A DNA stretch of 64,000 bases from an uncultured Nitrospiraceae bacterium (GTDB lineage Bacteria; Nitrospirota; Thermodesulfovibrionia; Thermodesulfovibrionales; Dissulfurispiraceae): the NCBI GenBank assembly GCA_963736105.1, contig CAVTNL010000001.1, positions 862,688-926,687 on the forward strand, given 5' to 3'. The notes under the pieces are model-generated. The model saw nothing but the letters and a program-made list of their open reading frames with translations, was not told the origin of the DNA and searched no databases. Shown here piece by piece: positions 6,590 to 54,115 of the stretch. The position numbers and the translations under genes were made by a program. The stretch's first letter is position 1. Each line of letters opens with the position of its first letter.

Positions 6590-7909
6590 TTAGGCGCGGA
6601 TACTCGGTAATGCATTGCCGAGAGGAGCGCCTGTCTTTGATTGATAGGAATAGCCGTCAGCCCTGTGAATCACAGAGCAGTGTTTATAGCTGATACCCTG
6701 AACAACACCAGCAGTACTCGACACATTGAAATAACCAGACGTTCTCACTGCTACCTTGCCGACATGTATGCCTGTCTTTTTGCCGGTCGGGACACTAGCC
6801 TTAACTAAATCCCCCGTTCTAAACCCCTCGACCACACGAGTCGACTTGGCTGAAGTCCGTGAGAACCCAAACTTGTCCATACGGCACATTTGCCGACAGC
6901 CATGACCACAAGCCTTCACCTGCAGCACAGCCATATTCGAATCGAGCTTTACATGCGCCCCGGACTCGCCAACGCAGGCCGCATCTATCCAGTGAGCCTT
7001 CGGATAACCCTGTTGATTACGGTTGAACTTAGTGCGCCCACCGGACCAGAATGTCACCGGCAATCCAAGAGACTTCAGAGTATTGCCAATCGCATATCGG
7101 GTAGCGTTAACCGCTGCCGCGTCTTTGAGCGGCATAAGAGCTTGTTTCTGCACCTCCGGATGCCCAAACTCCACAGCAGTAAGATTGTTCTTTCTCTGAT
7201 TGCAATCCTCACAGGACAGAGTGAGGTTTGAAACACGATCAGTACCTCCTCTGGACTTGGGAATTATGTGCTCGATTTGCAATGGAATATTGCCTGTACC
7301 GCAATACGCACACCTATGGCCCCATTTTTGGAGCAGGTACTGCTTGACCTCAAATCCAGCAAGTGTCCCCTGCTGGTATTCGACACCGGATATTTCAGGG
7401 TTGACCATCTTCTGCATATCGAACCTGACAGTCTCCACCGCAACAGACGTTAGCGGGGCAAGCCGTTGCAACCTCTGCGCCCAAGTCATCGTGTTGTAAA
7501 CGCGAGACATGAGAGAGGGCGGCAACCATCCCTCTGGCCTGGTCCGATTGTCAAAACGTGGAGCACGATATCTGGTCTTGCGGTTGCGCCTGCTTCTGCG
7601 AATAGAGCGCCTTGAATCAAGAGCTTTTTTGATAGCCTGCCCTCTGTGGTGAATCTCTGCGGCAAAGACTACCGTCTTCCCTCGCTTGGCGTACTCGGCA
7701 ATAAGTGCTACTCCGGTCAACTTGCTGCCTGGATCCGTTTTGAATTCAATCGGCTGAGTGTCTCCGTCTGCTCGATCTTTAAGAATGATCGTAAACGGAT
7801 ACCGGTTCAGCACCGCAGCTTTCTTCTCCGTTAATAACATCCTGGCCCTTGCCGGAGTGCAGGGCATGAGATGCTGTCTGGTACTGCTTACTACGAAAAC
7901 ACGTTGCAT
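6590..7909 (-). CDS. iscB: IscB (OMEGA RNA-guided nuclease; IS200/IS605-family insertion-sequence protein with split RuvC and HNH domains)
   Basis: N-terminal PLMP-like motif (HLMPCTP). Arg-rich bridge helix (RRSIRRSRRNRKTRYRAPRFDNRTRP). HNH motif (CAYCG...IEHIIPKSRGGTDRVSNLTLSCEDCNQRKNN). Zn-finger cysteines (CGHGCRQMC). About 440 aa. Confidence 0.8.
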   Translation of the reverse strand: MQRVFVVSSTRQHLMPCTPARARMLLTEKKAAVLNRYPFTIILKDRADGDTQPIEFKTDPGSKLTGVALIAEYAKRGKTVVFAAEIHHRGQAIKKALDSRRSIRRSRRNRKTRYRAPRFDNRTRPEGWLPPSLMSRVYNTMTWAQRLQRLAPLTSVAVETVRFDMQKMVNPEISGVEYQQGTLAGFEVKQYLLQKWGHRCAYCGTGNIPLQIEHIIPKSRGGTDRVSNLTLSCEDCNQRKNNLTAVEFGHPEVQKQALMPLKDAAAVNATRYAIGNTLKSLGLPVTFWSGGRTKFNRNQQGYPKAHWIDAACVGESGAHVKLDSNMAVLQVKACGHGCRQMCRMDKFGFSRTSAKSTRVVEGFRTGDLVKASVPTGKKTGIHVGKVAVRTSGYFNVSSTAGVVQGISYKHCSVIHRADGYSYQSKTGAPLGNALPSIRA

Positions 7910-8144
7910 CGAATTACTCCTTCAATCTCCACTTTCGTGGGTAATGTGTGCCTCGGCAATGTTATCCGGCGGTTTCGCTTAAAGCGCCTGCTGTTGGGTG
8001 TGCAGACAGCACTGGCTTAACCCTTACACCTGTTTAACTGTCTGCCGCAGAGCTTGGGACTGGCAAGCATCCCGAGGTGCCTATGTATTCGCCGGTAACG
8101 TAGTTAATACAACACTGAGCCTGGTCAACTAGAGCATGCTTGAA
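7910..8144 (-). ncRNA. Candidate omega-RNA region upstream of iscB
   Basis: 235-nt non-coding gap 5' of iscB with multiple stable hairpins (CAGACAG...CTGTCTG at 8003-8044; GAGCATG...CATGCTC at 8131-8156). In IscB systems the omega-RNA is encoded directly upstream of the ORF. Confidence 0.4.
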
Positions 8145-8522
8145 TTAACACATGCTCTCGGTTTTAACCCCGAGTGGTTGACTGTAGCTTCCCGTGGCTA
8201 CATGACCGTTCCATGCTGTGATGCCTCCGTCCATACTGTAAATTTTAGAGAACCCCTGAGCTAATAAGAAAGCTGCTGCAGCCCGACTCCGGTTGCCACT
8301 CCTGCAGTATGTGAGAATTGGCCTAGTACGATCTAGCTCGCCCACTTTGTTTATGAGGTCTGGTAGCGGAATAAAAACAGCTCCTGGAAGATGGCCAGAT
8401 TTATACTCTTCAGGTTGTCGAACATCGAGAATAATAAATTCTGATCCCTTGTTGCCAAGCAATTCTTTTGCCTGGTCGACGTCCAGAGTTTCAATTTTAT
8501 TGCCTGCATTTATATCTTCCAT
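8145..8522 (-). CDS. Rhodanese-domain sulfurtransferase
   Basis: Single rhodanese domain with CRSGNRS active-site loop. Confidence 0.8.
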   Translation of the reverse strand: MEDINAGNKIETLDVDQAKELLGNKGSEFIILDVRQPEEYKSGHLPGAVFIPLPDLINKVGELDRTRPILTYCRSGNRSRAAAAFLLAQGFSKIYSMDGGITAWNGHVATGSYSQPLGVKTESMC

Positions 8523-25262: not shown

Positions 25263-28200
25263 ATGCTTCTTCGCGACAAAACACAGCGTCTATTTGAGTA
25301 TATCAGCCAAGTATATGCGATTGATCTGCCTATCAACCGGGATGTACGTAAATACGGGAATGAACTTTGGTGGCAATCTGATATCATCTCCTCAGCACAA
25401 TGTAAAATTAAGAATTTTATCGAAAGCACCAATGCAATAAGCGATGAGCAGAGTGATGAATTAGCCGATGAAAAATGGCTCTCTGTTACAAAACGTTCCT
25501 ATGATGAACCTCCTCAGTTACCTTCAATCATAAGAGAGTGGGTTGACCTTTCTCCCATTCCTTCAAAAATCCCGGCACCAAAGCCTTCAATCCCGAAGGT
25601 AATATCTTTTGATTCAGACTCCCGACGAACAGATGCTTTTAAAAGATATGCGGAATCTCTGAGAATCTGGAAAGCAGCGGGAAAGGGGAAGACAACCCCT
25701 CCGATACCGGAAAGCCTTCGTGGTTGGATTGATTTATCACAATTGGCTAAACCTCCTTTCAATTTAGCGTCTTTTGACAAACGTGAAATTATCCAGCAGT
25801 TCGAGGATGATAAGAACAGAGTCGAGGCACTGAAGAATTATATTGAAGGGCCTTGGATACTATGGTCCGAGAGGGTACTACCTCTTTTTAAAGCAAATAT
25901 GCTGTACGATCAACTTTTCTCGCTCTACCAGAGACTGAGCGTGGAGGGTGACCGTATCGAGATTGTTTGGGGACATCTTTTCCTGTCGTGGCATCACAGC
26001 GCTGACAACGATATATATCATCCTTTAGTAGTTACCCCGATGAACTTGCATTTTGAACCCATACACCGAACTATTAGCTTAGCTCCGAGTCAGACCATTT
26101 CAACAAAGTTGGATTTAGATTGCCTTACTAACCTTGACTACCCGTCTAAAGATAAACTCATAAAGTATGCAAGAATAGTAAATGCTGGTGAACCAGTGGT
26201 CGACAGCGGGGATATGTCACTCGATGCTTGGAACCATACTCAAATGCGATGGTGTTCCGCCACTATTACCGGATTTCTAAGCAATGAAAGTGCTGATAAA
26301 TCGAATTTATACGTGGCAAATGATATGCTGCGTCCACCGACGACGGACTATCCTGCAATTTACAACGCACCGGTGATTTTTATTCGTGAGCGTACTCGCC
26401 GATTGTGGGTAGACGATGCTAAGAAAGTGGCGGAGGCTGTCCAAAACGGTTCAGAGATTCCGCCCTTTATTGGTTCTCTTACGGCAGATCCGCAGACTAG
26501 CGAACTGCCAAATCCTGATGATTACAAAGACTACACAGGCAAAGACGAAGATGAAGGTGAACATTTATTACCGCTTCTTTACAACGACCAGCAAGAGGAA
26601 ATCGTTAAAAAATTAAAGGGACATTATGGGGTCCTTGTTCAAGGCCCGCCAGGGACAGGAAAGAGCCACACAATAGCAAACATCGTCAGTTCATTACTTG
26701 CACGCGGGAAACGAGTGCTAGTAACTAGTCAAACGGAGAATGCCCTAAAAGTATTGCGAGACTATATTCCCCCGGAGATTAGAAGCCTTTGTGTCAGCCA
26801 ATTGGGAAATGATACTGAGTCCAAAAGGCAGCTCGGGGAGGCGGTCGAGTCGATTGGCAATCACATGTCAGAAAAGGACAGTTCGGCAGTAGAACAGAAA
26901 ATACAACAATTAAAAGAAGAACTGAGAATGTTACGGGAAGAGCAGGCTCAACTTCGCAACAAGATAAAGGATTGGGTAAAAATAGATTCCTGGCATGTAC
27001 AAATAGGTGAGGAGATTGTCAGTGCGTATGCGGCTGCACGATACTGTGCGGAAAATGTGTCAGAGCACGCCTGGTTCCCCGATAGCCTTTCACCGGAAAC
27101 TGAGCCTCCATCAAATAACGAGGAATTGATAGAGATGTGTTCTCTGGTTAAGGAGCTATCACCAGCGGATAGAAAGGCCTGGGGACAGTACCTTCCTGAT
27201 CCAACCAATCTTCTGCAGCCTAAAGATTTTGCAGAAAAGATTTCTGAACTTAAGGCTCTTTTAGAGCTTTTAGTCGAATCAGAGAATTTAAGAGATCACT
27301 GGGATGAGAGAATAAATAAAACAGAACAGCAAGATGTTAAAAAGATAATCTCGATACTAGAAGCAGCCTTGTCCGAATTTGAAAAGATGAAAGATTCTTG
27401 GCAATTCAAGATCTTGGAACTGATAACTACAGAAAAGAACCAGCATGATTATTGGCAGAATGTATTACAGATGTGTGAGAATTATCGTAATTCTGCGTGG
27501 CAGTCTTACCAGCTGATTCAGGATTGCCAAATCGAAATTGGTGGACTATCGCCCGATTTAGAAGTGAATGCTGCGCTTGAGGAACTGGATAGACTCATCT
27601 CAAAGGGCAGAAAGCCAACTGGTCTGATAGCTAAGTTAACGCTTTCAAAGGCTGCCAAGGAAGTCTTTCGTAAAGTAAAGGTTGATGGACGTCAGCTACT
27701 CACTTCCGAAAGAGTAAAAGTCGCCAAAGCACATTGCTCGTATACGTCTCAAATCACGAAAATATACACTGTATGGGAGAAAACTATCGGTGCTGTTGAT
27801 GGATGTGTTTTAGACCGAGGGAACTTGATGCCTCTAGCCGAAATAGATGAAAAGATAAAGTGGTTACGTTACCCTCTTCAATGGAAGAACGGTCATTATA
27901 GGACTCTGGAGAGTGTCCTGACACATGCTGGATGTCAAGAACAGGCTTTCTATACGCATGAGGTTCTCGTCAGTGCTCTTAAAGTATTGAAGAGCCGGCA
28001 AGCTGAAATAGCACAGCAGGCTATCGAGGAGAAGCTGTCAGAATACGCAAGTTTTCTTGCAAATGAGTCCAAAAAAGAGAATGCCCACGTGCTATGGCAG
28101 ATGCTTTCCGAAGCTGTTAGGAGGCGCTCACTTGTTGAATACGTGCAAGCCTATGATGAGTCGGTGCGACTCCTACGTGTTGGCAAAAAGGTAAGGAGGC

Positions 28201-29945
28201 TCGAAAAGCTAGCTGGTAGACTTAGCAACGTTGCCCCGAAGTGGTGTGACTCGCTTTTTGAAAAGGCACTTGAAATCGGTTCCAATGCTTTGGAAAAGGA
28301 TTGGTTACTAGCATGGAAATGGCGTCGGCTGGATGAATGGCTAAGCAGTCTTCACAATAGAGAAAGTGTAGAAAGTCTCCAGAACAAATTGGAAAGAGCG
28401 AGAAAAAAGGAAAGCGCCTTACTAGTGCATCTGGTTAAAGAAAGAACTTGGCAGAGGCAGCTCGCAAACGTAAAGGAATATCACTACAGGTCCCTAACAA
28501 CATGGGCAAATGCAATGCGCCTTTACGGAAAAGGAACTGGCAAGAATGCTCAACGTTATCTATTAGCGGCAACGAAGGCTATGGCAGATGCGGTTGGTGC
28601 GGTACCAGCATGGGTCATGCCGCTACATAGAGTGGTGCAATCATTCCCTGCAGAACCCGGTGTTTTTGACGTGATCATTGTTGATGAGTCGAGTCAGTGT
28701 GATCTAAGAGCTTTGCCAGTTTTGTTTAGGGGAAAGAAAGTATTGGTTGTTGGCGACCCGGAACAAATAAGTCCGTCTCATGTTGGGATTGAAAGAGACA
28801 AGGTTTTTCAACTGAACAGACACTATCTCTCTGATATACCCAACTCCGATATAACATTTGTAATTGACAATAGCCTTTACAACATTACAGAAGTTATGGG
28901 CATAAGCCGCACTCTTCTTACCGAACATTTTCGCTGCGTGCCACATATTATTGGATTCAATAATCATTTATGCCCAAGTTATGCTGGCAAACTCGAACCC
29001 TTACGTCAACCAAACCCACAAGAGATGCTTGAACCTGCTATTGTTACTAAATTCGTAGAAAAAGGGTTTAAAGATAACAATGATGTAAATAGGCCAGAAG
29101 CAGAAGTCTTAGTCGAGGAATTGATGAATTGTTGCAAGAATGATCTTTATTCAAGTGGGGGTAAGGACAATCGGAAACGGACAATGGGGGTTATATCGCT
29201 TCTTGGAGAGAAACAAGCAAAGTATATTTCGGAACTTATTGCGGAGAGGCTTGATGAGACTGAAAGAGCAGAACGCAGAATTATATGCGGTGACGCTTAT
29301 GCTTTTCAGGGGGATGAACGAGATGTTATGTTCCTTTCGTTGGTGGTTGCGCCGAATGCACCATTTGCCTCGCTGGTAAGAGATGCGGATAGACAGAGGT
29401 TCAATGTTGCTACAAGCAGAGCGAGAGACCAGGTGCATCTTTTTCATTCTGCTAGGTTAGATGATATAAAGAATCCATCATGTGTCAGGTATAAGTTGCT
29501 GAGTTGGTATCTGAACCCCCCGATAGCAGAGATGACTGCTGGAATTGAGATATTAAAGAAAAGAGCAGAAAGTGAATTCGAGATCGAAGTTGGCGGGCGT
29601 ATAATAAGTAGGGGTTACAAGGTCATTCCACAGTTTTGCCCATTCCCAAGTGATTTCAATTATCGGATTGATCTAGTTGTCCAAGGGGATACGACTCGTG
29701 TGGCTGTTGAATGCGATGGTGACCGTTGGCATGGAAGTGACAGCTGGGAATATGACCAGCGCAGAGAAGCACAGTTACGACGTGCGGGTTGGAAATTTTG
29801 GAGGATAAGCGGAAGTTTCTTCTACCGAAATAAGGGAAAGTCATTAGATGCGCTCTGGAAGTTCTTAGAGGAAGAAGGCGTTAACCCAATTTCTTTGAAA
29901 ACGGAAGGAGATTATCCACGGACTGCGAATCAAGAAAAGGAGTAG
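25263..29945 (+). CDS. Large (1560 aa) SF1 DNA2/Upf1-like helicase with an unassigned N-terminal region (DUF4011-like) and a C-terminal DUF559-like PD-(D/E)xK endonuclease domain
   Basis: Walker A VQGPPGTGKSHT (about aa 461). Motif II VIIVDESSQCD (about aa 1136). Motif III VVGDPEQISP. Motif V GDAYAFQGDERDVMFLSL. Motif VI NVATSRARDQVHLF. C-terminal YRIDLVVQGDTTRVAVECDGDRWHG...EYDQRREAQLRRAGWKFWRI. About 680-aa coiled-coil-rich insert between motifs I and II. Confidence 0.8.
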   Translation: MLLRDKTQRLFEYISQVYAIDLPINRDVRKYGNELWWQSDIISSAQCKIKNFIESTNAISDEQSDELADEKWLSVTKRSYDEPPQLPSIIREWVDLSPIPSKIPAPKPSIPKVISFDSDSRRTDAFKRYAESLRIWKAAGKGKTTPPIPESLRGWIDLSQLAKPPFNLASFDKREIIQQFEDDKNRVEALKNYIEGPWILWSERVLPLFKANMLYDQLFSLYQRLSVEGDRIEIVWGHLFLSWHHSADNDIYHPLVVTPMNLHFEPIHRTISLAPSQTISTKLDLDCLTNLDYPSKDKLIKYARIVNAGEPVVDSGDMSLDAWNHTQMRWCSATITGFLSNESADKSNLYVANDMLRPPTTDYPAIYNAPVIFIRERTRRLWVDDAKKVAEAVQNGSEIPPFIGSLTADPQTSELPNPDDYKDYTGKDEDEGEHLLPLLYNDQQEEIVKKLKGHYGVLVQGPPGTGKSHTIANIVSSLLARGKRVLVTSQTENALKVLRDYIPPEIRSLCVSQLGNDTESKRQLGEAVESIGNHMSEKDSSAVEQKIQQLKEELRMLREEQAQLRNKIKDWVKIDSWHVQIGEEIVSAYAAARYCAENVSEHAWFPDSLSPETEPPSNNEELIEMCSLVKELSPADRKAWGQYLPDPTNLLQPKDFAEKISELKALLELLVESENLRDHWDERINKTEQQDVKKIISILEAALSEFEKMKDSWQFKILELITTEKNQHDYWQNVLQMCENYRNSAWQSYQLIQDCQIEIGGLSPDLEVNAALEELDRLISKGRKPTGLIAKLTLSKAAKEVFRKVKVDGRQLLTSERVKVAKAHCSYTSQITKIYTVWEKTIGAVDGCVLDRGNLMPLAEIDEKIKWLRYPLQWKNGHYRTLESVLTHAGCQEQAFYTHEVLVSALKVLKSRQAEIAQQAIEEKLSEYASFLANESKKENAHVLWQMLSEAVRRRSLVEYVQAYDESVRLLRVGKKVRRLEKLAGRLSNVAPKWCDSLFEKALEIGSNALEKDWLLAWKWRRLDEWLSSLHNRESVESLQNKLERARKKESALLVHLVKERTWQRQLANVKEYHYRSLTTWANAMRLYGKGTGKNAQRYLLAATKAMADAVGAVPAWVMPLHRVVQSFPAEPGVFDVIIVDESSQCDLRALPVLFRGKKVLVVGDPEQISPSHVGIERDKVFQLNRHYLSDIPNSDITFVIDNSLYNITEVMGISRTLLTEHFRCVPHIIGFNNHLCPSYAGKLEPLRQPNPQEMLEPAIVTKFVEKGFKDNNDVNRPEAEVLVEELMNCCKNDLYSSGGKDNRKRTMGVISLLGEKQAKYISELIAERLDETERAERRIICGDAYAFQGDERDVMFLSLVVAPNAPFASLVRDADRQRFNVATSRARDQVHLFHSARLDDIKNPSCVRYKLLSWYLNPPIAEMTAGIEILKKRAESEFEIEVGGRIISRGYKVIPQFCPFPSDFNYRIDLVVQGDTTRVAVECDGDRWHGSDSWEYDQRREAQLRRAGWKFWRISGSFFYRNKGKSLDALWKFLEEEGVNPISLKTEGDYPRTANQEKE

Positions 29946-34581: not shown

Positions 34582-34793
34582 CATTAAATGCCTCCTTTTA
34601 AGACATGCTGTATTTCTTAAAGTCCATATCTTAAAGCTTAGCAAGCAGATTAAGGGTGTCAATATTTGAACTCCAAATAAAATGACTTGCTCTGTCGCGT
34701 GCATTTGCTTTATGAGGAAGGACCCTGCGTTAGTCACTACTAATAACAATCTATTTTGCCAGCAACATGAATTTAGAGATTTCTGGAAATAAA

Positions 34794-36273
34794 CCCAGAA
34801 TTGTCATTAGAGATGAGAAGTGAATGAAACGGGCAGATCAAAATCTTTTGATTTGCCCCAGAGCCCCTCAAACCATTGCCGTCGTCGCATCGCCAGGCAA
34901 AGCTTAAGAATACGTCTATTCCCATCTTTGACTAAGTAGCCGCCGGCAGCAAATATCTTGTATCGCATTGTCTTTAAAGTTGGTTGGACCTTACTGCACA
35001 AGACCACCTGGCGAAACAGACTCATCAGGTTATAGGCAAGCATTACGCAGTTCATTGCTGTTTCAGTGGCGCTGAAACTTTGCATATTGAAGCTGTCAGC
35101 ACCAAAGTCATACTTCAGTTCCTTGATCCGGGTTTCAGCATCCGCTGGCAGCCGGTAGATTTTCCATACAAGATGAGCGGGAAGCTCCAGGCTAGTAACA
35201 AAACAGCCATATCGATAGTCCCTGATCTCCACTTCCTCTGCAAACAATCTCAACACTTTGCCAGTTGCCTTCGGCCTTCTGGAAACCCGCTGTCGCACCA
35301 TGACCATTCTGCGCTCTTTACCCCAGCCATTGGCCCCGTAAAGAACTGAAGCCACTTCTATGCCCTCTTCAACCTCAAACCACTGCCGATGCGCCGCAAG
35401 CATGCGTTGCACAGGCGCATGTAGTCGTGTCGCAATAATATAGGGGATTGTATGCTGAGGTTCCTCAAGATACTCCAGTATAGTCTTCTGGTAAAAACCG
35501 CTATCTGCGCGCAACAGACCAACCTTCTTGCCGGCAAGGTGCTCAAGAGTGTCTTGCAGAAATCCCTCAAAGTTATTTGCCGTATGAGCATCGCCAGATC
35601 TCAGCCAGCAGTTGGCGACCATTCGGCAATCTGCAACAAATGCGAGCAGTGGATGATGGGAGTTTCTTCCAGGCTTCCGCGGATTGTACCCGCGACGAGC
35701 CCCTTCCTGTTGCCCGTACCGACTCATAACCGTTGAGTCCAAATCCAAGGTGAAGTTATCAAAATGCAGGTGCTCAAAAAACCACCGATAGAGCTCCTGA
35801 AACACTCTCTGGTTCGTTGCTTGCCCAAACTTCCTGAAATATCTTTGAACTGACTTATGCCCGGCCATACGTCTGTAATCAAATATCTTCCGTATCGCTT
35901 CATCATACCGAGTGACTTCCAAATGCTCAAATCGGTTGGCTCCGCACCACACGCTTACTAGAAACTGTTCTATCAGTTGTTCAGGTGCATACCCCCGATT
36001 GGAACCTTGCATCGGCAGTGCTGCCCGCTTTAATGCTCCCCGAAAGTCCATTTTCCCAAGCATCCGGTTCATTAGCGCCATGCCGCCCCATGGGGTTATT
36101 TCTTTGTCGCTAAAGCTCAGCTCAGGCTCTCGTGCCATGTATCGGTTCCTTACGCCATTTTCGCTTCCGATTGTGCCAAAGGCATTGAAATATCTTATCG
36201 CTTTTTCAGTAACTTATCCAGACCATTTCCTAATGGCGGCCATTAGAAATCCTTGGCTAATGACAATTCTGGG
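34794..36273 (-). mobile_element. IS1380-family insertion sequence, copy 1 (1480 bp)
   Basis: Perfect 17-bp terminal inverted repeats: CCCAGAATTGTCATTAG (34794-34810) and CTAATGACAATTCTGGG (36257-36273). Single 443-aa DDE transposase. Flanks are ATAAA (left) and TTAAT (right). Confidence 0.8.
34807..36138 (-). CDS. IS1380-family DDE transposase
   Basis: LDLDSTVMSRYGQQEGARRGYNPRKPGRNSHHPLLAFVADCRMVANCWLRSGDAHTANN matches the IS1380/ISEcp1 transposase core. Confidence 0.85.
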   Translation of the reverse strand: MAREPELSFSDKEITPWGGMALMNRMLGKMDFRGALKRAALPMQGSNRGYAPEQLIEQFLVSVWCGANRFEHLEVTRYDEAIRKIFDYRRMAGHKSVQRYFRKFGQATNQRVFQELYRWFFEHLHFDNFTLDLDSTVMSRYGQQEGARRGYNPRKPGRNSHHPLLAFVADCRMVANCWLRSGDAHTANNFEGFLQDTLEHLAGKKVGLLRADSGFYQKTILEYLEEPQHTIPYIIATRLHAPVQRMLAAHRQWFEVEEGIEVASVLYGANGWGKERRMVMVRQRVSRRPKATGKVLRLFAEEVEIRDYRYGCFVTSLELPAHLVWKIYRLPADAETRIKELKYDFGADSFNMQSFSATETAMNCVMLAYNLMSLFRQVVLCSKVQPTLKTMRYKIFAAGGYLVKDGNRRILKLCLAMRRRQWFEGLWGKSKDFDLPVSFTSHL

Positions 36274-36443
36274 TTAATTAATGAAATCGATTTCGTGACA
36301 ACTACTTACAACTCTTACCGCGGAGGTACAACTCATTATTCGAGCTTTCTTTCGGTAATCGAGGGTCACTGACAATCGCTTTGAGCCGCCTCTTTTCGGA
36401 ATTATGATATAATTTGAGAAAATCACGTGTTGTAACAAAGTTT

Positions 36444-39125: not shown

Positions 39126-39491
39126 ATGGTACATATATCTATGGAGCACAGAGAACCTGTTCTGCAAGTGATCTTCTATCGAAGCGAAAACGGCATTGAA
39201 CCCGTGAGAGAATGGCTCAAAGAGTTACGGAAAGAAGACCGCAAGGCAGTCGGCGGGGATATAAAAACTGCTCAGTTCGGATGGCCACTTGGCATGCCTC
39301 TTATCAGGAAAATTGAAAAGGATCTGTGGGAAGTCAGGTCCAATATAAAAGACGGCATTGCCAGAACGTTCTTCACGGTCGATACAAACACTATGGTGCT
39401 GCTCCATGGGTTTGTCAAAAAATCGCAGAAAACTCCGCCCAATGAACTACAGACAGCCAGGCGGAGAATGAGAAATATTCTTGGAGGTTAA
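39126..39491 (+). CDS. higB: Type II toxin, RelE/HigB (Gp49/DUF891)-like
   Basis: 121 aa; toxin-first arrangement overlapping the downstream HTH gene. ...DLWEVRSNIKDGIARTFF.... Confidence 0.65.
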   Translation: MVHISMEHREPVLQVIFYRSENGIEPVREWLKELRKEDRKAVGGDIKTAQFGWPLGMPLIRKIEKDLWEVRSNIKDGIARTFFTVDTNTMVLLHGFVKKSQKTPPNELQTARRRMRNILGG

Positions 39492-39886: not shown

Positions 39887-40061
39887 CAAGCCGGTAGCTT
39901 AGGGTGTTGATAGATTGCTGCAACTCATTGTTAAATTGCGACAATGAAGGCATAATCAATCAGGATAAATCTTATGCAGATACCATAGCCCCAAAGCTTT
40001 GATATTGTAGCGTTAAAGGCATAGAAGGATAATTTTATCAACACCCTAAGCTACCGGCTTG
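39887..40061. mobile_element. MITE-like 175-bp element with 26-bp perfect TIRs and a 9-bp target-site duplication
   Basis: TIR CAAGCCGGTAGCTTAGGGTGTTGATA (39887-39912) against its reverse complement TATCAACACCCTAAGCTACCGGCTTG (40036-40061). Flanked by direct repeats TATTCCGTT (39878-39886 and 40062-40070). No ORF inside. Confidence 0.6.
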
Positions 40062-40325
40062 TATTCCGTTAGAGGTAGCCTACTTTCCTGAATAAAGTGC
40101 GGAAAGGAAAATGGTAATCTGGCCTGAAAGGCCTAATCAGCGCCGTGAGGCAATGAGATATCTGCCCCATGTATATTTGAGGGAAGAAATGTACCACATT
40201 CATATAATGAGAAATTTTGGTGTGACCGAAGATAGGGTTCATCTGTCTTTCGATAAATTATTGCAGCATTTATGAATAACTAGACATCGCTGCTGTGCCT
40301 CGGTTTATATGATAATATAAACCAT

Positions 40326-49105: not shown

Positions 49106-49757
49106 ATGGCGCTGTCTTATCTGGTCATACTTTATGAATTTGTTTGTTGTAGTCAGGAAACGATTAATAGCATGAGGGTATAGCGCATGATCGCATCGGC
49201 TAAAGGGTTGGGGTGGTTCTAGCTGTGTCTTTAGATTATCGCAATACTAATTTTCAATGTCTACCAAAATAAAAGTTGAGTTGTATCCTAGCCGAACCGC
49301 GACAAGTCAAGACTATACAATCTGTTGACGATTCTCAAAAAAAATCATCACCATTTCAGACTCTTTTGAAAGAAGGAATACTGTGAGCCGGCAGTGAGCG
49401 TAGAGATATTTCTCGATGCGAGGTTAGTAGGAAATCAACGATAGTAAATAATCGCCCAAATCGATAGCTTCTTGGGTATGCCGTGTAAAACGTATGACTA
49501 GTCGGTTAAAGTCCGACCGCGGGAGTTCGGTGGTTCACCCGCGTAGCTAGAGGGAGGTGTGAAGAGCAATCTAAAGCACTAAGTTTCCTGACAAAGGCTC
49601 CGAAAGGGAGCTGAGCGAACCTGCGGGTCGCAGCGATTGCGAACCCAGATGTAGCCTCGAAACATCGAAACGGAGTTGCCGACCCTGTCACAGAAAGGGG
49701 AAGGCCGTTGCATCTATCCTAACGCAAACTACCGCAACCGATAGATGAACTTCCGGG

Positions 49758-50790
49758 GTGTCAGGGGTGACACCCAGAGGAAGCCATACGACAATGAACA
49801 CGGGAGACCCGTGCCGATGCAGTACAGGAAGCAAACCGGTGGATATAAGGAAACGAAATTTCACTGGGTTGGTACGGGAGTCGGATTTGCCCATATTACC
49901 GATTGTATCTCAAGAACAACATAACCTTGGGAGAGGGAAGGGGCAATACTTTTATCATGTTTTTGAAGAAGTAAAGGACAGGAGATTGCACAACGTGCTG
50001 GAAACTCCAGAAAAGATCCGGGAACTTCAGAGGAAACTATACCGGAAAGCCAAGCAGGAAAAGGAGTACCGTTTCTATCTTCTCTATGACAAGGTATACA
50101 GGCTGGACATCCTGAACCATGCCTACCGTCTTGTTCGTGCAAACAAGGGAGCGCCGGGAGTAGACGGCGAGACCTTTGCGAGCATAGAGGAGAGGGACGG
50201 AGGAGCAGAGAAGTATCTTGAAGAGATTGCAGGAGAACTGAAGTGGCAAACGTACAAACCGCAACCTGTCAGGAGGGTATATATCCCAAAGGCAGGCGGA
50301 GGAACGCGACCGCTTGGAATACCGGTAATCAAAGACAGGGTAGTACAGATGGCAGTAAAGATTGTGATTGAGCCTGTATTTGAAGCCGACTTTCAGGACA
50401 ACTCTTATGGATTCAGACCGAAGCGAAATGCCCATCAAGCGGTGGCGGACGTGCAGAAGCACCTTCTTAAAGGCAAAACAGATGTCATTGATGCTGATAT
50501 CTCCAAGTACTTCGACACCATTCCCCACGATAGGCTGATGCAGTTGGTGGCCAAGCGCATCGTTGATAAGCACATACTAAAGCTGATCAAGATGTGGTTG
50601 GAGGCGCCAATTGTAGAAGAACGTGAGGATGGGAAATCTGAGTATAAGGACAATGACAAAGGGACGCCTCAGGGAGGGGTGATATCACCGCTTCTTGCTA
50701 ACATCTACCTGAACGTACTTGATATGATTTGGAAGATCAGGGAAGTAGAGGAGAGGTTGGGGGCACGACTCGTCCGCTATGCGGACGATT
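49758..50790 (+). CDS. Group II intron A reverse transcriptase/maturase, exon 1 (RT domains 0-5, ends at YADD)
   Basis: [12 protein letters not shown]...[17 protein letters not shown]...RYADD. Likely true start is the GTG near 49995. Confidence 0.7.
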
Positions 50791-52661
50791 GTGCGCCGCA
50801 GGCGCACAAGGAGGTTCTTATGTAAGAGAACCGATTGTGTACAAGCTGCACAGGAGATGGAGGAAGGCCCTCCAAAGCCGGCCTGCAGGGGCAGGCTTTA
50901 AACAACCATGAGCTGCGTTGGTAAAGAGCCGATGTGGTGAGCGTCATGGAAAAGGCGCAACAAATGCGTCATGTACGAATCAGAAAGGCGAATGAAAATG
51001 AATCACCGATGACGTGTCGAAAGCGTAGGGACGGCATCAAAACCAGGGGGGAGTCGTTAACCTGGGATAAATCCATCGGAAACCTGATTACTGGGTGGAT
51101 GGTGTCCGGCATGAAGGTGACGCGAGTCTGATTCTGGCTCTTGTGTGGAACTGCGGGAACCTGTCGCTCCGATGTTAAGGAAGAAGTTCAAGGGGCAGAT
51201 CCCCGAGGATGAGAGTACCGATGCGGAGAACAGGGGCGGAGCAACTTGTAGTAGCTTAGAAGTTCCGTAATTGGAATGGAGCGAAGGGGTTGCGTTATTC
51301 AGTTTTATTTGGCTGTCAACCAGAAATGGGAGGAACTGTTGGATAAGACAAAGTCATTTAGTATTTCTAAGCAAGCAGTGTGGGAAGCGTATTTGCGTGT
51401 AAAAGCAAACAAGGGTGCGGCAGGGGTTGACGAGATATCGATAACCAAATTTGAAGAGAAGTTGAAAGACAATCTCTACAAACTATGGAATCGGATGTCG
51501 TCAGGGAGTTATATTCCCCCTTCAGTGAGAGCTGTTTCCATACCAAAAGCCAACGGAGGGGAAAGGATTCTTGGAATCCCCACAGTTGCTGACCGTATTG
51601 CCCAGATGGTAGTCACGATGTACCTTGAGCCGTTGGTTGAGCCGTGCTTTCATCCAGATTCCTACGGGTATCGTCCGGGGAAATCGGCACTGGATGCAGT
51701 GGGGACAGCGCGGAAAAGGTGCTGGAGATCAGATTGGGTGATAGACCTCGACATTAAGGGGTTTTTCGACAATCTTGATCACCAGTTGGTGATGCGGGCG
51801 GTGAGGAAGCATACCGATTGCCGATGGGTTCTTCTGTACCTTGGGCGGTGGCTTCAAGCCCCAATGCTAAGAGCAGATGGCACATTGGAGAATCGGGATA
51901 AAGGCACTCCACAGGGGGGAGTATGCAGTCCGCTGCTTGCAAACATCTTTATGCACCACGCCTTTGATGAGTGGATGCGACAAAATTATCCGCAGGTGGT
52001 ATTTGAGCGTTACGCGGATGATGTGCTCGTGCACTGCAAAACAGAGCGAGAAGCTATACTTATGCTCCGAGCGATTGAAGAGCGTTTAATGCAAGCTGGA
52101 ACTTCATCCTGAAAAGACACTTATCGTGTATTGCAAGGATGATGATCGGCGAAAGAACTATCCAAGAGAATGCTTCGACTTTCTTGGCTATACTTTTCGG
52201 CCAAGGAGAGCGAAGAATAAACATGGGAAGTACTTTGTTTCGTTTCTTCCGGCTATTAGCAACAAAGCCAAAAGCAAGATTCGCAAGGCCATAAGGGAAT
52301 GGCGCATTCATCTTATCACGTGGACGTCGCTGGAAAACATAGCGGAAAAGATAAACCCGGTAGTGCGTGGTTGGTATCAGTACTATGGACGGTTTTACAA
52401 ATCCGAAATGTATCCAGTGCTTCGTAACGTGGAGAACTACCTAACATTATGGGCGCGTCGGAAATACAAGAGCCTCGCAAGGCATGGTCGAAATGCTCGT
52501 AGATATCTTGGCAGTGTGTGCAAACGCATGTCTGGATTATTCGTACATTGGGAACTTGCCTTAGGGTCTCCGACTGAATAATGGGAGCCGGATGAGCCGA
52601 GAGGTTCCTGTCCGGTTCTGCGAGGGACTGGCGGTGAAGTTCCGCCGGTCTACTCTCCGCG
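50791..52661 (+). mobile_element. Group II intron B (inner intron) inserted into the YADD region of intron A's RT gene; boundaries +/- 2 nt
   Basis: Begins GTGCGCCGCAGG at 50791. Domain V GAGCCGGAUGAGCCGAGAGGUUCCUGUCCGGUUC (52585-52618) with GAGA tetraloop. Domain VI with candidate bulged A at about 52651. Removing 50791-52661 restores ...YADD-L-VLCKGNSE... in frame. Confidence 0.55.
51276..52581 (+). pseudogene. Group II intron B reverse transcriptase/maturase, interrupted by a +1/-1 frameshift near 52100-52125
   Basis: ORFs 51276..52112 (RT domains through YADDVLV...) and 52126..52581 (LHPEKTLIV...maturase X domain INPVVRGWYQYYGR) lie in different frames. Confidence 0.6.
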
Positions 52662-53191
52662 TGGTGTTATGCAAAGGCAATAGCGAACGGATAATGAAGG
52701 GAGTCAAGGCCGTGCTTTATGACCTTGGCCTCAGCCTCAATGAGGAAAAGACACGTGTGGTGGATGCACGACACGATAGCTTTAACTTTTTGGGGTTTCG
52801 CTTGGTAATGCGGAAAAGCATGAAGAGCAGAGGAATGTTCCCTTTGACTGAGCCATCCGCGAAGGCGATGAAGCACATTCGGTCAGAGATCAAGCAGTTG
52901 ACGACTGAACGATACAGTGCAACGCCGACAGAGGATGTTATCCATAGAGTCAATTCTGTTGTCAGAGGATGGGTGGGTTACTTTTATTACGGCCACTGCA
53001 CAAAGGCCATGTCTGCTTTGCGATACTATCTTGTCTACAGGATGAGAGTGTATCTTCGTCGGAAACACCATTACCACAGTCTTGGGTATAGGACGTATCC
53101 CGACAGTTACTACTACGACTCCTTGGGTTTGTACAAAGTTCCAACTACTGCTCCATGGACTCGGACTGCGAATGCTTCTGGAAGAAGATAA
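52662..53191 (+). CDS. Group II intron A reverse transcriptase/maturase, exon 2 (RT domain 7 plus maturase X domain)
   Basis: VVLCKGNSE...LGLSLNEEKTRVVDARHDSFNFLGFRL...VVRGWVGYFYYGH. No En domain. Confidence 0.65.
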
Positions 53192-53593
53192 TCGGTAAGC
53201 CGTGTGCGGGAAAACCGCATGCACGGAATTGACGAGGGGGAACTGGAGATAGGGCCTTCGGGCTACTACGCCAGTTCTCTACTCTACTGAACTTATTGAC
53301 CAGATATTCAAAAAATGGATCACCAGATCGATTGTTACTGCACAGAAGCAATACCGAGGCGACTTTTCATTGATAACAAGTTCTAAAAGAATATTTTACT
53401 ATGACAGAAAACTGACAGGTTTGCTTGGAATAGGTGCCCGAACTCAGTAGAATATCTAGGTGTTCAAGCGGAAGTGATCGGTGTAACAATTAAAGTATTA
53501 ATGGCAGGTAACACTATTTTGGAAAAACATAGTTTACTATTTGTTATTTATATTTATTATCTATTTTTGTAACAATAGGAGGTTTGATAAAAA

Positions 53594-54115
53594 GTGGAAT
53601 ATAAAAATATGATGTTAGCTGAGTCCCGCAATGGCAATACTGAAGCAGTTAAGCAGCTTATTGAAGCAGGCACTGATGTGAATGCAAAGAATAATCTTGG
53701 AGATACCCCATTGATGTGGGCAGCCCGTTATGGCCACACTGAAACAGTAAAGCTCCTTCTTGAATCGGGTGCTGATGTTAATGCTAATAATAATTATGGC
53801 TGGACTGCTCTAATGTGGGCAGCCCGTTATGGCCACACTGAAACAGTAAAATTCCTTCTCGGGAAAGGTGCAGATGTAAATAGAGAGAACCGTCATGGCA
53901 ACACAGCACTACTGTTTGCGGCTTATGAAGGCAGTACTGAGATGGTGAAGCTACTTCTTGAAGCTGGCGCCGATGTTAACGCAACGAACGGAGAAGACGC
54001 CACTGTATTGAGCTATGCCTATGAACTTAAGGACGAAGCCAAGCGAGAGGCGATCATAGAGATGTGTAGGAAATATAATGCTGTCGAATTGACCGGTGGT
54101 GAAATAAGTGACTGA
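53594..54115 (+). CDS. Ankyrin-repeat protein (4 ANK repeats)
   Basis: Repeated GDTPLMWAARYGHTETVKLLLESGADVNA units. Confidence 0.8.
   Translation: MEYKNMMLAESRNGNTEAVKQLIEAGTDVNAKNNLGDTPLMWAARYGHTETVKLLLESGADVNANNNYGWTALMWAARYGHTETVKFLLGKGADVNRENRHGNTALLFAAYEGSTEMVKLLLEAGADVNATNGEDATVLSYAYELKDEAKREAIIEMCRKYNAVELTGGEISD

Follow-up and report, generated by a model that had tools for sequence, protein, structure and literature searches.

Group II introns nested inside other group II introns (twintrons), and the homing of introns into one another, have been reviewed (PMC4424553) and studied (PMC2882425) in bacteria. The locus analyzed here is such a twintron. It lies in a 64,000-nt stretch of contig CAVTNL010000001.1 (assembly GCA_963736105.1, an uncultured Nitrospiraceae bacterium), which we call the window; there, an inner intron, B, interrupts the reverse transcriptase (RT)/maturase gene of an outer intron, A, at the codons of the YADD motif. 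Targeting of these codons, and the twintrons that result, were described for B.th.I3, M.a.I5, UA.I3, and P.l.I2 (Tourasse & Kolstø 2008, PMC2504315). These four introns are ~1.8 kb long, have a "B-like" structure, lack an endonuclease domain, and are 58-67% identical in nucleotide sequence among themselves. The intron-binding sites IBS1 and IBS2 of B.th.I3 are the RT active-site codons, AGGTATGCTGATGACT, encoding RYADD (PMC2504315). For YADD-homing introns, the same paper cites Dai & Zimmerly 2003 (RNA 9:14), and B.th.I3 was later placed with the Wolbachia intron W.e.I5 in group 'g2' (Toro & Martínez-Abarca 2013, PMC3552965).

Intron B resembles the described YADD-homing introns in length (1868 nt) and in encoding an intron-encoded protein (IEP) that lacks an endonuclease domain. 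In its target, the 5' portion (IBS2 plus IBS1) likewise consists of RYADD codons (CGCTATGCGGACGATT, where the published site reads AGGTATGCTGATGACT), and its insertion into the RT open reading frames (ORFs) of other group II introns likewise makes twintrons. It differs in that its IEP appears to be inactivated by a 5-bp deletion, and in that its host matches another Rfam domain I-IV family; the published hosts, by contrast, are described as 'related' introns. An indirect link runs through Wolbachia, whose intron proteins are the nearest named relatives of the B IEP (68% identical) and whose W.e.I5 stands with B.th.I3 in g2 (PMC3552965).

Other twintrons are more distant. In Thermosynechococcus elongatus, TeI3 is inserted in TeI4 (Mohr et al. 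2010, PMC2882425); as in the window, one group II intron has entered the ORF region of another at a conserved position, and the inner intron has no working IEP and needs a protein in trans. In contrast to the window, where the catalytic motif is split, TeI3 sits between the first and the second ATG, and the outer IEP can therefore still be made from the latter; moreover, TeI3 and TeI4 are close relatives sharing the outer IEP, whereas A and B match different Rfam families. The group II twintron of Trichodesmium (Pfreundt & Hess 2015, PMC4649490) and the Euglena chloroplast twintrons (reviewed in PMC4424553) are also nested group II introns and splice sequentially, the inner one first, which is the general rule for twintrons (PMC4424553). 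They differ from A and B in residing in protein-coding host genes and in that their splicing was shown by experiment, whereas A plus B is intergenic and known from DNA.

Because the target specificity and the resulting twintrons have been published (PMC2504315), A plus B is a further case of a kind that is already described; its mechanism is largely known, and the findings do not upset current understanding. A first-pass annotation of the window had proposed the nesting, but did not recognize YADD targeting as the known homing specificity of the B lineage (PMC2504315). What is added here are the exact boundaries, the defective inner IEP, the breadth of the lineage, and the presence of G opposite variable third codon positions. 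Neither of the last two was found stated in the literature examined.

Extent and boundaries of the nested introns

The following features define the two ribozymes and the split gene of the outer intron; a slash marks a junction.

49476 to 53287, plus strand: outer group II intron A, 3812 nt with intron B and 1944 nt when B is left out
49499 to 49638, plus strand: domain I segment of intron A (Rfam RF02003, group-II-D1D4-4)
49995 to 50790, plus strand: IEP of intron A, part 1; GTG start, RT motifs as far as ...RYADD, and the first base (T) of the next codon
50791 to 52658, plus strand: inner group II intron B, 1868 nt, GUGCG...CUACUCUCC
50859 to 50973, plus strand: domain I segment of intron B (Rfam RF01999, group-II-D1D4-2)
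52583 to 52658, plus strand: domain V of intron B, with a GAGA loop, and domain VI, with A52652 bulged; from RF00029 and folding
52659 to 53191, plus strand: IEP of intron A, part 2; begins with GC, which completes Cys, and continues with VVLCKGN... through the remaining RT domain and maturase X
53195 to 53287, plus strand: domain V of intron A, with a GAAA loop, and domain VI, with A53281 bulged; from RF00029 and folding
plus strand, from the B boundaries: predicted B-spliced junction ...GACGATT/GCGTGGTG..., also ...TATGCGGACGATT/GCGTGGTGTTATGC...
plus strand, from the A boundaries: predicted A-spliced junction ...GATAGCTTCTTGG/TGAACTTATTGACC...

Both introns stand out well above anything expected by chance. 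An Rfam scan assigned A and B to different domain I-IV families, A to RF02003 (89.8 bits, E 1e-19, gathering score 49) and B to RF01999 (111.9 bits, E 2e-23, gathering score 36). Two domain V/VI units were also recognized. That of B matches RF00029 with 54.5 bits (gathering score 40) and folds at -44.7 kcal/mol (z -4.8; none of 200 shuffles as good); it is the unit for which a GAGA-looped domain V and a domain VI had been proposed. That of A was detected in a permissive Rfam scan only (35.9 bits, E 1.4e-4, gathering score 40); its fold has z = -5.5, and 0 of 200 shuffles folded equally well. In both units, the domain V hairpin contains a bulge of 2 nt, and the domain VI behind it has one bulged A, located seven nt before the intron end. 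Read against relatives in an alignment, domain V of A carries two compensatory pair changes and domain VI one.

The 5' end of B at 50791 (GTGCGCC), as first proposed, is correct and fits the conserved GUGYG. For its 3' end two in-frame options exist: 52661, the original choice, would give RYADD-L-VLCK, and 52658 gives RYADD-C-VVLCK. Since full-length homologs of the A protein read RYADD[V/S/C]V[I/V]LC, we place the end at 52658, 3 nt earlier. The option at 52661 keeps the frame, but it makes the protein one residue shorter than all homologs and conflicts with the common ...CTACTCTCC/ end. Nine B relatives on other contigs all start with /GTGCGCC and all finish with ...GGTCTACTCTCC/, and both junctions are identical in copies with 95-96% nucleotide identity to B (L001-L005, L097-L100, and L102), which end in ...CTACTCTCC/.

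For intron A, which starts with GUAUGCC and closes with ...CUCUAC, the boundaries came from three relatives (L093, L094, and L095) with 80% nucleotide identity and no insert, which align from 49474 to 53287-53291 across the B site. At the 3' end, four copies are conserved through ...CTCTACTCTAC/ and diverge a few bases later, and the Rfam alignment and the fold also stop at 53287; the end proposed earlier, 53270, falls 17 nt short, inside the domain VI stem. At the 5' end, the relatives share no similarity upstream of 49474. In L093 and L094, the loop of exon-binding site 1 (EBS1) at intron position 213 (CCTACA and CCTACAAA, respectively) pairs perfectly with the last 6-8 exon bases, which end in ..TGTAGG/ directly before GTATGCC (6 of 6 pairs in L093, 8 of 8 in L094). 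As this EBS1 pairs with an exon ending just before GTATG, intron A starts at 49476. The start initially proposed, 49383 (GTGAGCC), was 93 nt off, and positions 49383-49475 are flank. In all, three of the four boundaries in the first-pass annotation needed correction.

Intron B splits the outer RT at its YADD codons, and removing B restores the frame, as had been predicted. The joined A protein has 442 aa, reads RYADD-C-VVLCK, and matches the group II RT/maturase model TIGR04416 end to end (412 bits, positions 3-353 of 353, cut-off 300), with the Pfam domains RVT_1 and GIIM. Its full-length homologs have 440-442 aa, are 79-82% identical, and read RYADD[VSC]V[IV]LC. By our reading of the sequence, the GTG start is preceded by AGGAG 8 nt upstream. 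On the ORF map, the locus comprises an RT ORF ending in ...RYADD, then an RT and a maturase ORF in different frames, and lastly another maturase ORF. Annotation would otherwise report four unrelated RT/maturase fragments; the correct reading is two nested retroelements with exact boundaries.

Target recognition by intron B

The pairing partners of B were located by a complementarity search, and the loops were placed by RNA folding.

50777 to 50790, plus strand: homing site of B in the RT gene of A; IBS2 CTATGC (50777-50782), G (50783), IBS1 GACGATT (50784-50790)
51023 to 51028, plus strand: EBS2 of intron B (GCGUAG) in a 9-nt hairpin loop; pairs with CUAUGC at -14 to -9
51052 to 51058, plus strand: EBS1 of intron B (AGUCGUU) in a 13-nt hairpin loop; pairs with GACGAUU at -7 to -1

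EBS2 and EBS1 form 6 and 7 base pairs, respectively, with the exon ending in CGCTATGCGGACGATT/. The EBS2 target begins with the third base of the Arg codon, continues through the whole of the Tyr codon, and ends with codon positions 1 and 2 of Ala, and the EBS1 target comprises Asp-Asp plus one base; the unpaired G at 50783 is the third position of the Ala codon. The EBS2 motif GAAAGCGUAG is kept in ~50 family members, and EBS1 is likewise nearly invariant.

Among 37 distinct target sites, positions -13, -12, -10, -9, -7, -6, -4, and -3 are near-invariant. The third positions of the Tyr and the two Asp codons (-11, -5, and -2) are mixed C/T, and each lies opposite a G in the intron, so that either synonymous codon can pair. 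Position -8, the third position of the Ala codon, can be any base and falls between the two pairings. At -1, opposite A, T is present in 19 of the 37 sites. One relative, L024, shows covariation: its target is TATCAGGATGATA, its EBS2 has UGGUA in place of GCGUA, and the first base of its EBS1 is U, which faces the A at -1. Positioning G to face the variable third codon positions may be of use in engineering introns directed at a protein motif and not at a single DNA sequence.

Most of the hosts tested for B-family introns are group II RT/maturases. Two other genes also carry such introns. In Paenibacillus gyeongsangnamensis (L034, ~2980), the intron follows ..SQYADD/ in the large subunit of a PBSX-family phage terminase, and in an Acidobacteriota metagenome-assembled genome (L038, ~2968), it follows ...HVHLIPRYAGD/ in a HIT-family protein. 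These look-alike sites fit a mode of recognition in which nucleotides, not protein context, are read.

Relatives of intron B and their hosts

The closest intact B-type IEP, P0121, is 96% identical and occurs at at least 8 loci in metagenomes ERZ25039480 and ERZ25039473, nearly always with part of an RVT_1 domain upstream of it and part of a GIIM domain downstream. The host introns there are unrelated to A in DNA, and one is itself B-like (71% identity). The insertion point in these hosts is constant, TAYGCNGAYGAY-N/intron/, and the joined exons read RYADDV/F/W/C/Y.... Copies of B at 95-96% identity show the arrangement ...GAYGAYN/GTGCG...CTACTCTCC/ in at least 4 different host RT genes.

One scan of species-representative genomes with the family alignment provided 80 loci among the matches listed. 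Their IEPs are 58-69% identical to that of B, and no relative above 69% was found among these 80. The taxa include Wolbachia, Paracaedibacter, Legionella, Bacillus, Paenibacillus, Desulfosporosinus, Acidobacteriota, and Planctomycetota, among others. At at least 46 of the 80 listed loci, the intron 5' end abuts YADD or a close variant of it, such as FADD, YCDD, or YQDD. The YADD pattern did not resolve the remaining ~30, several Wolbachia copies among them, and these may have other targets. At 14 of 20 loci checked, the host RT halves end and resume near residue 249 on both sides of the intron. Tblastn spans of ~1800-1900 nt had suggested further nested inserts within some relatives; at the same 14 loci, the second segment was the downstream half of the host RT, with no additional insert there.

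By landing on the most conserved stretch of RT genes, an intron lineage has a target in any genome with other retroelements. Going further, the B lineage might be a widespread, dedicated hyperparasite of retroelements, much wider in range than the four published introns suggest, to which nearly any RT gene is a target, and a B copy with a dead maturase might lock the RT of A. We regard this extension as doubtful; if true, the death of an inner maturase, acting as a permanent lock, would offer one selfish element a natural way to silence another.

A cultured organism offers the same nested architecture. On pSymA of Sinorhizobium meliloti (CP140947.1, 142519-146757; L096), an intron encoding a 419-aa 'ltrA' protein follows ..GTGCGCTATGCCGACGACT/ in a gene annotated as 'reverse transcriptase domain-containing protein', and several copies are present per replicon. 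The S. meliloti intron would be a convenient experimental system. Matches on Sinorhizobium plasmids had been considered as RmInt1 (class D), but the inspected locus is itself a YADD-nested intron; with that reading rejected, the formal class of B is taken from the literature only.

Disruption of both maturase genes

In the inner intron, the IEP gene is present in two parts.

51276 to 52112, plus strand: N-terminal ORF of the intron B IEP (RT domain), 278 aa; start ATG 51276 or TTG 51339
52090 to 52581, plus strand: C-terminal part of the intron B IEP in a different frame; end of the RT domain and maturase X (Pfam GIIM)

The N-terminal ORF covers TIGR04416 positions 1-239 (327 bits), and the C-terminal part covers positions 258-352. 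RVT_1 and GIIM were the only domains detected, with no endonuclease domain, and intact relatives have 415-438 aa. Comparison with four intact copies (95-96% identical in DNA) revealed a 5-bp deletion (GGCTC) between 52087 and 52088, after which the RT frame reaches a stop at 52110-52112. The frameshift reported earlier for this gene was therefore real, but its position, given as 52100-52125, was not: the deletion lies upstream, and only the stop falls in that interval.

An identical truncated ORF of 278 aa recurs on 8 contigs from other assemblies (ENA, JGI, and NCBI), always at the cusA-linked locus. Within the twintron, the seven contigs retrieved match the window at 99.9-100% identity, and all have the 5-bp deletion, indicating that it is real. 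These data also bear on whether a twintron exists at all. If the locus were one degenerate intron in which pieces of the RT gene are duplicated, or a chimera made in assembly, and the frameshift a sequencing error, this would account for the fragmented ORF pattern, and for that only. Such readings conflict with the two ribozymes of different Rfam families and their two domain V/VI units, with uninterrupted relatives of A in which the site is empty, and with B relatives at the same site in other hosts. They also conflict with the agreement among seven assemblies from different samples, and the loss of 5 bp from non-repetitive sequence is atypical of homopolymer error. On these sequence comparisons, we regard the degenerate-intron and chimera readings as refuted, with a negligible chance of being right.

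No other disabling lesion than the deletion was found in the B IEP. Relative to an intact copy, the ratio of nonsynonymous to synonymous substitution rates (dN/dS) is 0.06 both upstream and downstream of the deletion (synonymous divergence, dS, 0.15-0.26), so the deletion is probably recent. The locus would thus represent an early stage of decay, with the inner maturase lost by a single recent deletion and the outer protein unreachable.

Residue 190 of the B IEP (window ~51843-51845) is Gly, whereas Glu (..LY[LI]ERW..) is invariant in all nine family members aligned. This exchange is possibly a second damaging change besides the deletion.

Proposed history and dependence of splicing

The empty site in relatives of A and the presence of B in other hosts indicate that the twintron is an intron nested by insertion. 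Our reading, which we hold to be probable, is that B entered the RT gene of A by retrohoming, has since become maturase-defective, and now forms a locked relic with A unless served from elsewhere. In this history, the mobile intron B, whose protein lacks an endonuclease domain, would have retrohomed into the RT gene of the resident intron A. B lies in the domain IV ORF loop of A, leaving the ribozyme core of A contiguous but cutting its RT/maturase after YADD plus one base. Because of this position, the A protein could be translated only from B-spliced RNA, and we infer that B must splice before the A protein is made. The later 5-bp deletion parts the RT domain of B from its maturase domain, so that B would have lost its own protein for splicing and mobility. 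Both introns would thereby have become a locked, immobile relic downstream of cusA, unless a B-family protein acts in trans or B self-splices.

With its own IEP broken and the A protein blocked until B is gone, B would need self-splicing or a B-family protein. It had been suggested that B may rely on the maturase of A. This is circular, as the A protein requires prior removal of B, and since the two introns also belong to different Rfam domain I-IV families, such help is unlikely.

Several points weigh against this history or parts of it. The domain V/VI unit of A scores below the Rfam gathering threshold (35.9 against 40), and the 5' end of A is GUAUG rather than the consensus GUGYG, a variant common to its relatives L093 and L094. 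By sequence reading, the EBS1-homologous loop of A in the window (CACAGAA) pairs with the exon (TTCTTGG) at 5 of 7 positions. Judged from this pairing, the insertion site of A is near-cognate; A may have been impaired beforehand or may sit at a non-cognate site. Splicing and its order are deduced from DNA, an intact B-family maturase may sit outside the 64-kb window, and B is likened to B.th.I3, M.a.I5, UA.I3, and P.l.I2 by description, not by direct sequence comparison. Finally, the low dN/dS speaks for constraint until recently, but would also be expected if this copy of B were still somehow useful.

As to the present state of the locus, we rate an immobile, locked relic at slightly better than even. 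An active twintron, in which an intact B-family IEP from another copy splices (and perhaps mobilizes) B in trans and A remains mobile, has a clearly smaller though appreciable chance. Intact B-type IEPs that are 96% identical do occur at at least 8 loci, in metagenomes with neighboring ERZ accession numbers; the ribozyme elements of B are intact, with a single ORF lesion and a dN/dS of 0.06, and in Thermosynechococcus, IEP-defective introns are trans-mobilized by related IEPs (PMC2882425). Continued service in trans is nevertheless unlikely in our judgment, as no intact B-type copy was found in the samples with the twintron locus, the exact truncated B ORF was found at that locus only, and the Rfam scan detected no further copy of A or B inside the window. 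A fate other than relic or service in trans seems improbable.

Movement of A and B as one composite unit, instead of a separate insertion of B at this locus, was considered as well, because another genome has an A-like/B-like composite, located elsewhere but with the same two junctions (L108, ERZ25039512), and composite mobility is one of two routes to twintrons discussed in the literature (PMC2882425). However, the B parts of L108 and the window are 85-91% alike, while the lone A segment aligned on its own is 84% alike (the 3' part of A is excluded from this comparison); with the B parts more alike than the A segment, independent insertions of B are favored. In addition, B-type introns occupy many unrelated host introns, and a single copy of the A plus B composite was found for the source organism. 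We therefore think it very improbable that the composite moved as a unit.

The A-like/B-like twintron on contig_56649 of ENA ERZ25039512 also carries a 2.2-kb element encoding an 828-aa large serine recombinase and a 154-aa ORF. It is present twice, once in the RT gene of each intron and in opposite orientations (L108 4258-6483 and 7736-9963; L109 7736-9963). Both insertions lie in the DNA for RT motif 4, ..TPQGGV.. (CAGGGNGGNGTNAT). The copies are 99.8% identical and have ~26-bp terminal inverted repeats ending in GGGAGGAGTA, a mimic of the target sequence. The element may represent a second type of mobile DNA that lands on a conserved RT motif.

Genomic context and neighboring features

The twintron is intergenic; cusA lies upstream of it on the same strand, at a distance of 370 nt. 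No plus-strand terminator-like site was detected between cusA and the intron, so read-through transcription from cusA is possible; promoter and terminator scans of the locus gave nothing above expectation. Two copies of an insertion sequence (IS) flank the region.

34790 to 36277: IS copy, 1488 bp, DDE_Tnp_1_4 transposase of 443 aa
60032 to 61519: second IS copy, 1488 bp, in direct orientation to the first, with the same type of transposase; 97.2% identical

The copies bracket a ~24-kb segment with two-component, cusCBA, twintron, ankyrin, and ABC-F genes. The bracket is compatible with transposon cargo, and the cargo setting proposed in the first-pass annotation remains plausible on this basis.

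Directly downstream of the twintron, positions 53594-54115 (plus strand) encode a 173-aa ankyrin-repeat protein. Upstream, a marginal match to Rfam RF02012 (group-II-D1D4-7; 34.8 bits, gathering score 34) was obtained at 40057-40184 (plus strand), flanked by a Gp49-like (DUF891) gene (39126-39491) and, from 40326, by an ORF resembling a response regulator. Neither an RT ORF nor a domain V was found near this match, which may be an intron remnant or a chance hit. Positions 25263-29945 (plus strand) encode a 1560-aa protein with helicase domains (AAA_11/AAA_12) and, at its C terminus, a restriction-endonuclease-like domain (MTES_1575). A HEARO RNA (RF02033, 128 bits) at 7941-8182 (minus strand) lies directly upstream of the gene for a 439-aa RRXRR plus HNH protein (6590-7909); together, the two form an HNH-endonuclease-associated RNA-and-ORF pair at 6590-8182 (minus strand).

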